From: Escherichia coli
GTDB lineage: Bacteria > Pseudomonadota > Gammaproteobacteria > Enterobacterales > Enterobacteriaceae
Strand: one strand, 5' to 3'
Assembly (NCBI RefSeq): GCF_030013595.1
Contig: NZ_CP122768.1
Length of the DNA stretch: 64,000 bases
This document shows positions 7,252 through 7,632 of the stretch, piece by piece; positions within the stretch are counted from its first letter, which is position 1; the number at the start of each line of letters is the position of its first letter. Below the pieces are notes generated by a model, which was given only the letters and a program-made list of their open reading frames with translations, did no database searches and had not been told where the DNA came from. Both the position numbers and the translations under genes were made by a program.

Positions 7252-7479
7252 TGAAAGAGACGTTTTACTTAAACGAGAGGCCGCCTTTTTTGTTTCAAGG
7301 CGGCACACATTCAACAGATTAAGGTAACCGATTTGACCATTTAGTTGCGCGCCAGTTGTTCTGAACCATAATCACCTGAAGTATCTCATCTGAAGGCTCC
7401 GCTTCGCGGCGTAAACATTCTCTTAAAGTTGAACAATGTAGATAAGAGGAGCTCGCACGAGTTTGATAGACCTGATGCG

Positions 7480-7630
7480 AGCCCCCGATTCCTGTCCTGA
7501 AAGGGAGATAGCCCCCCTGGTCGCGGGTCCTTTCCGAAATCCAAAACACCGAGGGTCGGTAGACGCGCAAAAACTCACTCGTTTTTAGTATTTTTTCATT
7601 TTGGGTATTTCCGGTTCCGGTGAGGATTTT
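7480..7630. other. Putative cos / packaging-initiation region upstream of the terminase small-subunit gene
   Basis: Non-coding stretch with GC-rich and T-rich blocks resembling the layout of lambda cosN/cosB; the lambda 12-nt cohesive end GGGCGGCGACCT is not present. Confidence 0.25.
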
Positions 7631-7632
7631 TA

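Follow-up and report, generated by a model that had tools for sequence, protein, structure and literature searches.

In phage lambda, the R3 site spans bp 50-65 and TerS contacts bp 55-63, the critical positions being bp 56, 58 and 59 (PMC9026076). Phage N15 has a 'simple cosB' instead, in which R3 occupies bp 48-59 and the inverted rR2, located within gene 1 at bp 249-260, is dispensable (Feiss et al. 2015, PMC4669245). The same authors describe the CG that flanks the cosN nicks as highly conserved (PMC4669245). A further point of comparison is Valp1, reported to be a protelomerase-encoding (telomeric) phage (PMC11054321).

Here, a 64,000-nucleotide stretch of Escherichia coli DNA (the window) was compared with these systems. 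From sequence comparison, we consider it likely that the cos belonging to a lambda-type head module lies at 7525-7621, with a further, accessory element at 7813-7821. Its cosB would be of the simple N15 kind, and its predicted cohesive end is divergent. We favour this reading because the elements are present in the order and spacing of lambda and are conserved, and because there are relatives with physical 12-nt ends. The features are given in Table 1. Base pairs (bp) of the window are numbered from 7554, the first base of the predicted end, and slashes in quoted sequences mark the borders of an end.

Table 1. Features of the putative cos region, its surroundings and the related segments of three other E. 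coli prophages.
Feature	Position	Strand	Remarks
GC-rich hairpin, 8-bp stem, terminator-like	7280-7304	.	not cos
Small minus-strand gene, 3' remnant (phrog_5191)	7319-7458	-	not cos
cosQ GGGTCCT, packaging-termination signal	7525-7531	+	within 13-nt exact lambda identity
cosN, 16 bp: predicted 12-nt 5' cohesive end GGTCGGTAGACG (7554-7565) with flanks AG and CG	7552-7567	.	
T-rich spacer, cosN to TerS site, with conserved block TCACTCGTTTT	7566-7607	+	69% A+T, 45% T
R3-like TerS binding site (putative), GGTATTTCCGGTTCCGGT, tandem TTCCGG	7604-7621	+	position as lambda R3
terS, distant Nu1-family small terminase subunit, 188 aa	7633-8199	+	
Inverted R3-core copy GAACCGGAA inside terS	7813-7821	-	100% complementary to 7609-7617
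terL, gpA family	8186-10048	+	Pfam GpA_ATPase (4.5e-48), GpA_nuclease (6.1e-64)
gpW	10048-10281		head module, Pfam
Lambda-family portal	10278-11852		head module, Pfam
cosQ-cosN segment, OkiPb01676	4002-4075		position in extracted locus
cosQ-cosN segment, SK6988	4004-4075		position in extracted locus
cosQ-cosN segment, SA53-3	4005-4075		position in extracted locus

Lambda-like blocks upstream of the small terminase gene

The first-pass annotation had marked 7252-7632 as a putative cos region. A closer inspection confined cos to ~7525-7621, the right third of that interval, whilst 7252-7458 proved to be unrelated to it. The flagged interval is bordered by a lysis cassette (holin and endolysin-like genes, ~4805-6138) on one side and by a lambda-type head module on the other. 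In the closest E. coli relative, the genes annotated downstream encode an S49 protease, a head-decoration protein, the major capsid protein and FI. At an identity of at least 90% the region is chromosomal in ~440 of 5,426 complete E. coli genomes (about 8%). It was also found in one phage record, vB_EcoM-705R4, where cos is internal to the record.

Lambda-like blocks had been noted upstream of the small subunit gene, and these were readily recovered. The string tcgcgggtcctttccg was located at 7521-7536, and its 13-nt core, CGGGTCCTTTCCG (7524-7536), is identical to lambda 48472-48484, a segment that includes cosQ. This core occurs as a single exact copy in the window, where ~0.002 exact copies would be expected by chance (64 kb, both strands), and GGGTCCT is found on the + strand of the window at 7525 only. 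Nine cos regions were aligned with MAFFT (alignment A1), namely those of lambda, PhiR12_2, the window, two metagenomic relatives, ARM81ld, Valp1, ST2-1pr and L026. Across all nine, GGGTCCTT is invariant, and the invariant columns comprise cosQ, G-1, G1, G2, C11, C13-G14-C15 and the TCCG of R3. The distance from the start of cosQ to the predicted end is 29 nt in the window and 30 nt in lambda, ARM81ld, PhAER-5 and Valp1. The T-rich block that had been noted before the Nu1-like start was likewise present, as the spacer between cosN and the TerS site (Table 1), in a window of 49.8% G+C; this spacer is T-rich in every member of the clade and in lambda.

The predicted cohesive end and its natural variation

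The first-pass annotation had also held that the 12-nt cos sequence of lambda, GGGCGGCGACCT, is absent, which was taken to suggest a different cohesive end, a claim that a canonical lambda cos elsewhere in the prophage would have refuted. The absence was confirmed and the suggestion supported. No match to GGGCGGCGACCT at 0 or 1 mismatch was found anywhere in the window. Eight matches were found at two mismatches, none of them adjoining cosQ; this number is at chance level, as shuffled sequences gave a mean of 5.2, with 12 of 100 reaching eight. The 12 bp at the position of cosN, an end predicted by homology, differ from lambda at 6/12. Of the six identical positions, five fall in bp 1-6 (5/6) and one in bp 7-12 (1/6), a left/right asymmetry in line with the one that Feiss et al. 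(PMC4669245) describe for cosN function. Overall, the divergence from the lambda end is greater than in the N15 and Gifsy-1 examples cited in PMC4669245.

In the MAFFT register the window reads GAG/GGTCGGTAGACG/CGC under lambda ACG/GGGCGGCGACCT/CGC, and by BLAST record position 1 of both ARM81ld and PhAER-5 aligns to window 7554. Twofold symmetry amounts to 8/16 in the 7554 register and 6/16 at shifts of ±1 or ±2, with lambda at 10/16. To the right, the flank is CG (7566-7567); to the left it is AG in the preferred register, CG being obtained only with a 14-nt register. A palindrome, ACCGA-GGG-TCGGT (7548-7560; a minus-strand hit), was considered as an alternative symmetry centre or terminator and rejected, being not kept in relative L023, having no folding signal (z = -0.09) and conflicting with the physical ends of relatives.

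The register at 7554 was adopted because the records of relatives preserve physical 12-nt ends. In the Valp1 record (OR500391.1), Illumina adapter remnants are found at both ends, directly abutting the 12-mer GGGGCATGACCT, so that the left end reads ...CTCTTCCGATCT/GGGGCATGACCTCGCAG and the right end ...CCCCACG/GGGGCATGACCT/AGATCGGAAGAGC. This is the signature of a filled-in 12-nt 5' overhang, the contamination thereby revealing cohesive ends. The record is deposited as a 'complete genome', and the contaminating adapter is seen as ...ACACGACGCTCTTCCGATCT and AGATCGGAAGAGCACACGTCTGAA... in its terminal stretches (1-26 and 1-29). The PhAER-5 record has GGGCGTTAGACC at both ends, whilst that of phiARM81ld starts with GGGCGTTAGACC and ends ...CCCTTGCG. 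A cos junction, ...CCCTTGCG/CGTTAGACCC, was also seen in Aeromonas phage PCAh2 (PQ314494.1, ~1120-1130 of the extracted locus). This junction is without the GGG that opens the ARM81ld/PhAER-5 end, reflecting either a true difference of 3 nt or an artefact of assembly at the cohesive ends. For the Escherichia-type site itself, 0/19 IMG/VR contigs with the 20-mer end there, and a phage-database search with the related OkiPb01676 cos returned two matches, both internal. A literature search for the 12-mers gave unrelated primer matches only, and the Valp1 paper contains no discussion of cos.

Moreover, part of the region is shared with other E. coli prophages. In ~47 further E. coli genomes the cosQ-cosN part alone is found, upstream of unrelated terS genes of Nu1 or N15 type. 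The cosQ-to-cosN segments of three lambda-like prophages, OkiPb01676, SK6988 and SA53-3, are 77-85% identical to that of the window and have the same 29-nt cosQ spacing. The OkiPb01676 cos has the identical 12-mer GGTCGGTAGACG, followed by CGCAAAAAC, and SK6988 has the variant GGTCTGGGGACG. SA53-3 reads CG/GGGCGGTAGACG/CGC, which puts a canonical CG/GGGCGG left half at the 29-nt spacing and thus supports the 7554 register. Beyond ~bp 21, all three are unrelated to the window; they have a long lambda/N15-style cosB and a TerS of Nu1 or N15 type. The TerL proteins of OkiPb01676 and SK6988 are only 43% identical to that of the window, as against 64% to lambda gpA, so that the phylogeny of the terminases is not mirrored by the cosQ-cosN segment. 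This suggests that the cos end segment may have been exchanged between phage lineages in E. coli.

The SA53-3 locus is an island next to clpS that contains a cos and a Nu1-like terS without terL, as well as genes for a DUF1441 protein, two PerC-family regulators, a ProQ/FinO protein and an SSB. Its appearance is that of a PICI-like satellite (phage-inducible chromosomal island) with a cos of its own.

Given the 29-nt spacing and the AG flank, the exact 12-mer is predicted with an uncertainty of ±1-2 nt at the left nick. It is unlikely, though worth weighing, that the site is a cos whose nicks fall elsewhere than at 7553/7554 and 7565/7566, either in the +1 frame (7555-7566) or as a 14-nt overhang from 7551/7552. 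In the +1 frame the cosQ spacing stays at 30 nt and TTTCCG falls at bp 54-59, its position in ARM81ld; the distance from cosQ to R3, 83 nt, equals that of ARM81ld, and an ungapped register would give 7555. However, TAGAC.CGCA....TCACTCGTTTT aligns without gaps to ARM81ld only if bp 1 is 7554. Shifted nicks are also at odds with the CGC right flank, which is invariant at bp 13-15, with the symmetry, which is best at shift 0 over the range -2 to +2, and with the left half of SA53-3. The 14-nt overhang draws on CACCG, which does not vary between the window and three other E. coli cos variants, whilst the next two bases do (AG, GG, CG, GG). A top-strand nick after CACCG would give CG flanks on both sides, whereas the 7554 register is without the canonical CG left flank. 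Yet every measured or record-preserved end among gpA-type relatives is 12 nt long, including that in the N15 record note.

With nicks at 7554 and the corresponding positions of relatives, the ends of the clade are diverse. The ends, predicted or recorded, are GGTCGGTAGACG, GGTCGGGAGACG and GGTCCCAGGACG in the Escherichia type and metagenomic relatives, GGGCGTTAGACC in Aeromonas, GGGGCATGACCT, GGTGTGTGAACG and GGTTGTCAGACT in Vibrio, GGGGTGTAACCT in Photobacterium ganghwense and IMG/VR contig L026, and GGTCTCTATACC in Shewanella. A pattern scan of a genome collection gave 19 matches, of which 16 look like chance and three are real. When Escherichia, Aeromonas, Vibrio, Photobacterium and Shewanella are compared, cosN is fixed only at G1, G2, C11 and the flanks. 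Since the ends of the clade vary in this way, a cohesive end unlike that of lambda is the norm in the family and is not surprising.

Putative TerS sites, terminase genes and the state of this copy

Downstream of the predicted end, one tandem R-like site lies between cosN and terS. Within it, TTTCCGGTTCCGG is at 7608-7620 (bp 55-67), and TTTCCG falls at bp 55-60, precisely its place in lambda R3 (ggcgTTTCCGttc). The tandem TTCCGGTTCCGG is within ±1 bp of the lambda position in the members examined from the Escherichia type, Aeromonas and Vibrio. PhiR12_2, whose TerS has a related DNA-binding domain, has TCCGGT at bp 54-59, with CATGTCCGGTT at bp 54 and two inverted AACCGGACATG copies. The N-terminal domain of its TerS resembles that of the window, yet in PhiR12_2 the cosN is the canonical one of lambda and the cosB is long. 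PhiR12_2 lends the R3-like reading further support. No match to an IHF site (WATCAANNNNTTR or its core) was found in 7500-7900, hence there is no lambda-style I1, and the start of terS at bp 80 leaves no room for a lambda-style I1-R2-R1 array.

The inverted copy GAACCGGAA lies at bp 260-268, the position of rR2 in N15. All of the members examined from the Escherichia type, Aeromonas and Vibrio have an equivalent inverted AACCGGAA at bp 253-284, and Vibrio xiamenensis and Photobacterium ganghwense also contain AACCGGAA inside terS. The copy codes for Glu-Pro-Glu in an otherwise variable linker of TerS. At this point Pro is always encoded by CCG (10/10 sequences having it) and Glu always by GAA (11/11); at an invariant Pro elsewhere in TerS all four codons are used (11 sequences). 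The fixed CCG and GAA codons argue for selection on the DNA itself, although the EPE residues could be under selection at the protein level as well. A second inverted copy, CCGGAAATGCC at 8029-8039, was rejected as a site, being restricted to the Escherichia group and explained by its WPEMP codons.

The description of the terminase as lambda-like in the first-pass annotation was sound for TerL, which is 43.6% identical to gpA and has the Pfam domains listed in Table 1, whilst TerS is kin to Nu1 only at the level of profiles. TerS was assigned to PHROGs family phrog_57 ('terminase small subunit', E = 2e-39). A profile of eight clade members matched a profile of lambda Nu1, N15 gp1 and PhiR12_2 over residues 1-155 with 99.4% probability (hhalign), and by BLASTP only 51 residues were matched to Nu1. 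Pfam gave no family for TerS even at E = 10. Confidence in the AlphaFold model is limited to residues 1-50 (pLDDT ~85), which form a helix-helix-wing-helix. A Foldseek search of the model against the PDB returned nothing significant (best E-value 0.076), and its top matches, MerR-type winged-helix proteins, are only loosely consistent with a Nu1-like fold. TerS is 47% identical to ARM81ld TerS and 46-47% identical to those of the Aeromonas and Vibrio telomere phages, and TerL is 53.6% identical to that of ARM81ld.

In this copy, terL contains an in-frame amber codon at 9035-9037 (W284*, TGG to TAG relative to vB_EcoM-705R4), which splits the gene into ORFs 8087-9037 and 9107-10048. TAG at codon 284 is found in the window and IMG/VR contig 2778261251_000020 only, and TGG in 16 other relatives. 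As a consequence no full-length TerL is made and the prophage is packaging-defective. In E. coli HCP5S3_I2, the closest E. coli relative (99.8% identical over cos), an IS4-like element, ISVsa5, lies inside terL (10799-12007 of the extracted locus) and is an independent inactivation of the gene.

There is a small chance that, in a defective prophage, only a decayed relic of the site without function persists and the DNA is never cut here. The amber codon and the insertion in terL of the closest E. coli relative are what a relic might show, as is a 301-bp deletion that ends 66 bp upstream of cosQ. Against this, the deletion falls outside the interval from cosQ to cosB, and relatives whose TGG codon is intact are identical to the window, or differ from it by 1-2 nt, between cosQ and the start of terS. 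Moreover, the ~440 E. coli genomes have kept the region at an identity of at least 90%. A relic would in any case concern the present activity of this copy and not the identity of the sequence as a cos.

The deletion, at 7458/7459, emerged from the alignment with vB_EcoM-705R4, and most E. coli relatives likewise retain the 301 bp. Lost with it is the 5' part of an 81-aa minus-strand gene (phrog_5191, with weak similarity to HTH_3) located between the lysis genes and cos. The hairpin at 7280-7304 has a folding energy of -13.9 kcal/mol on the + strand (z = -2.8) and -19.7 kcal/mol on the - strand (z = -5.7). It is kept in vB_EcoM-705R4 and is flanked by the convergent lysis-side genes on one side and by the truncated minus-strand gene on the other. 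Two further ORFs, 6562-7032 (- strand, 156 aa) and 6240-6488 (+ strand, 82 aa), lie between the lysis cassette and the terS remnant described below. The 156-aa ORF had no Pfam or PHROG match. Both ORFs are absent from vB_EcoM-705R4 and are thus possible morons.

At 7072-7251 there is a 59-aa ORF that corresponds to the N-terminal fragment of another small-terminase family (phrog_51). Its DNA is ~75% identical to terS genes of Klebsiella phages, and the annotation of the closest E. coli genome lists its counterpart as a pseudogene of a terminase small subunit. The fragment appears to be a scar from the replacement of another packaging module by the lambda-type cos module. That packaging is headful (pac-type), with the lambda-like blocks a coincidence, could be argued from this remnant of a different small-terminase gene just upstream, but is highly improbable given that the remnant is a 59-aa fragment, that the functional-looking module is of the lambda type (Nu1/gpA/W/B), that relatives have unique 12-nt ends and that a 13-nt cosQ match with position-specific conservation across genera is not expected by chance.

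Read as a lambda-type cos with a simple cosB, the site would act as follows, by analogy with lambda and N15. The N-terminal winged helix-turn-helix of TerS would bind the R3-like tandem TTCCGG at bp 55-67, and the inverted copy ~200 bp further on, inside terS, probably helps this binding. Bound TerS would position the gpA-family TerL for staggered nicks at cosN, the predicted product being the 12-nt 5' overhang GGTCGGTAGACG, with the exact nick positions inferred. Once the head is filled, cosQ would signal nicking at the downstream cos. In this prophage, with its W284* TerL, cos could act only with an intact terminase of the same specificity supplied in trans.

Significance and comparison with known cos systems

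The current understanding of cos packaging is unchanged by this locus, which is best regarded as a lambda-type cos of the ordinary kind. The comparison adds data on the natural variation of cosN, and a second, independent example of the N15-style layout of R3 with an intragenic rR2. Small points of note are the codon-level evidence for the intragenic rR2-like site and the sharing of cosQ-cosN across terminase lineages. Differing from lambda at half of its positions (6/12), such an end would not anneal with lambda ends. More generally, the prediction of ends and signals helps to delimit prophages, to orient phage records and to predict cross-packaging or annealing of phages and satellites.

Only tentatively can a bolder view be put forward, and it may well prove wrong: that the locus represents an undescribed packaging-specificity class within the lambda terminase superfamily, in which the cohesive end can be exchanged as a module irrespective of the terminase by which it is cut. 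If true, this class would be marked by a tandem TTCCGG R3, an inverted copy within Glu-Pro-Glu codons and a hypervariable centre of the cohesive end. It would be common to integrated E. coli prophages and telomere phages of Aeromonas, Vibrio and Shewanella. An exchangeable cosQ-cosN segment would be one that moves between E. coli lineages with TerL only 43% identical.

The window shares with lambda the cosQ heptamer, G-1, G1, G2 and C11, the CGC right flank, the T-rich spacer and the R3 core at bp 55-60, as well as the gene order cos-terS-terL-W-B-C and a gpA-family TerL. It differs in its left flank and cosQ spacing, which are CG and 30 nt in lambda but AG and 29 nt here. The terS start, at bp 191 in lambda, is at bp 80 in the window, which is without the I1/R2/R1 array, and the predicted recognition helix of TerS is RRLRDLAK as opposed to RTIQNWQE in lambda.

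As in N15, just one R site separates cosN from the start of terS close by (bp 80 here, bp 89 in N15), and an inverted copy follows ~200 bp downstream, within the part of terS that codes for the linker. However, the R sequence is GAGGTTGTTGTT in N15 and TTCCGGTTCCGG here, and the recognition helix of N15 gp1 is also different. N15 gp1 and the TerS of the window are 22% identical (BLASTP) and the TerL proteins 42.9% identical, whilst the cohesive end of N15 differs from that of lambda at only 2 positions. As both R sequence and recognition helix differ, the window has an N15-like layout but lies outside the N15 specificity group, and its specificity is probably different.

The closest terminase relatives outside Escherichia are phiARM81ld, PhAER-5 and Valp1, whose cos DNA aligns with the window from cosN to the terS start. 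These phages share R3 (ATTTCCGGTTCCGGT) and the intragenic AACCGGAA with the window, but differ in their ends (GGGCGTTAGACC and GGGGCATGACCT), their canonical CG flanks and their 30-nt cosQ spacing. Lastly, the element of the window is chromosomal in ~440 E. coli genomes, whereas Valp1 is reported to be telomeric.
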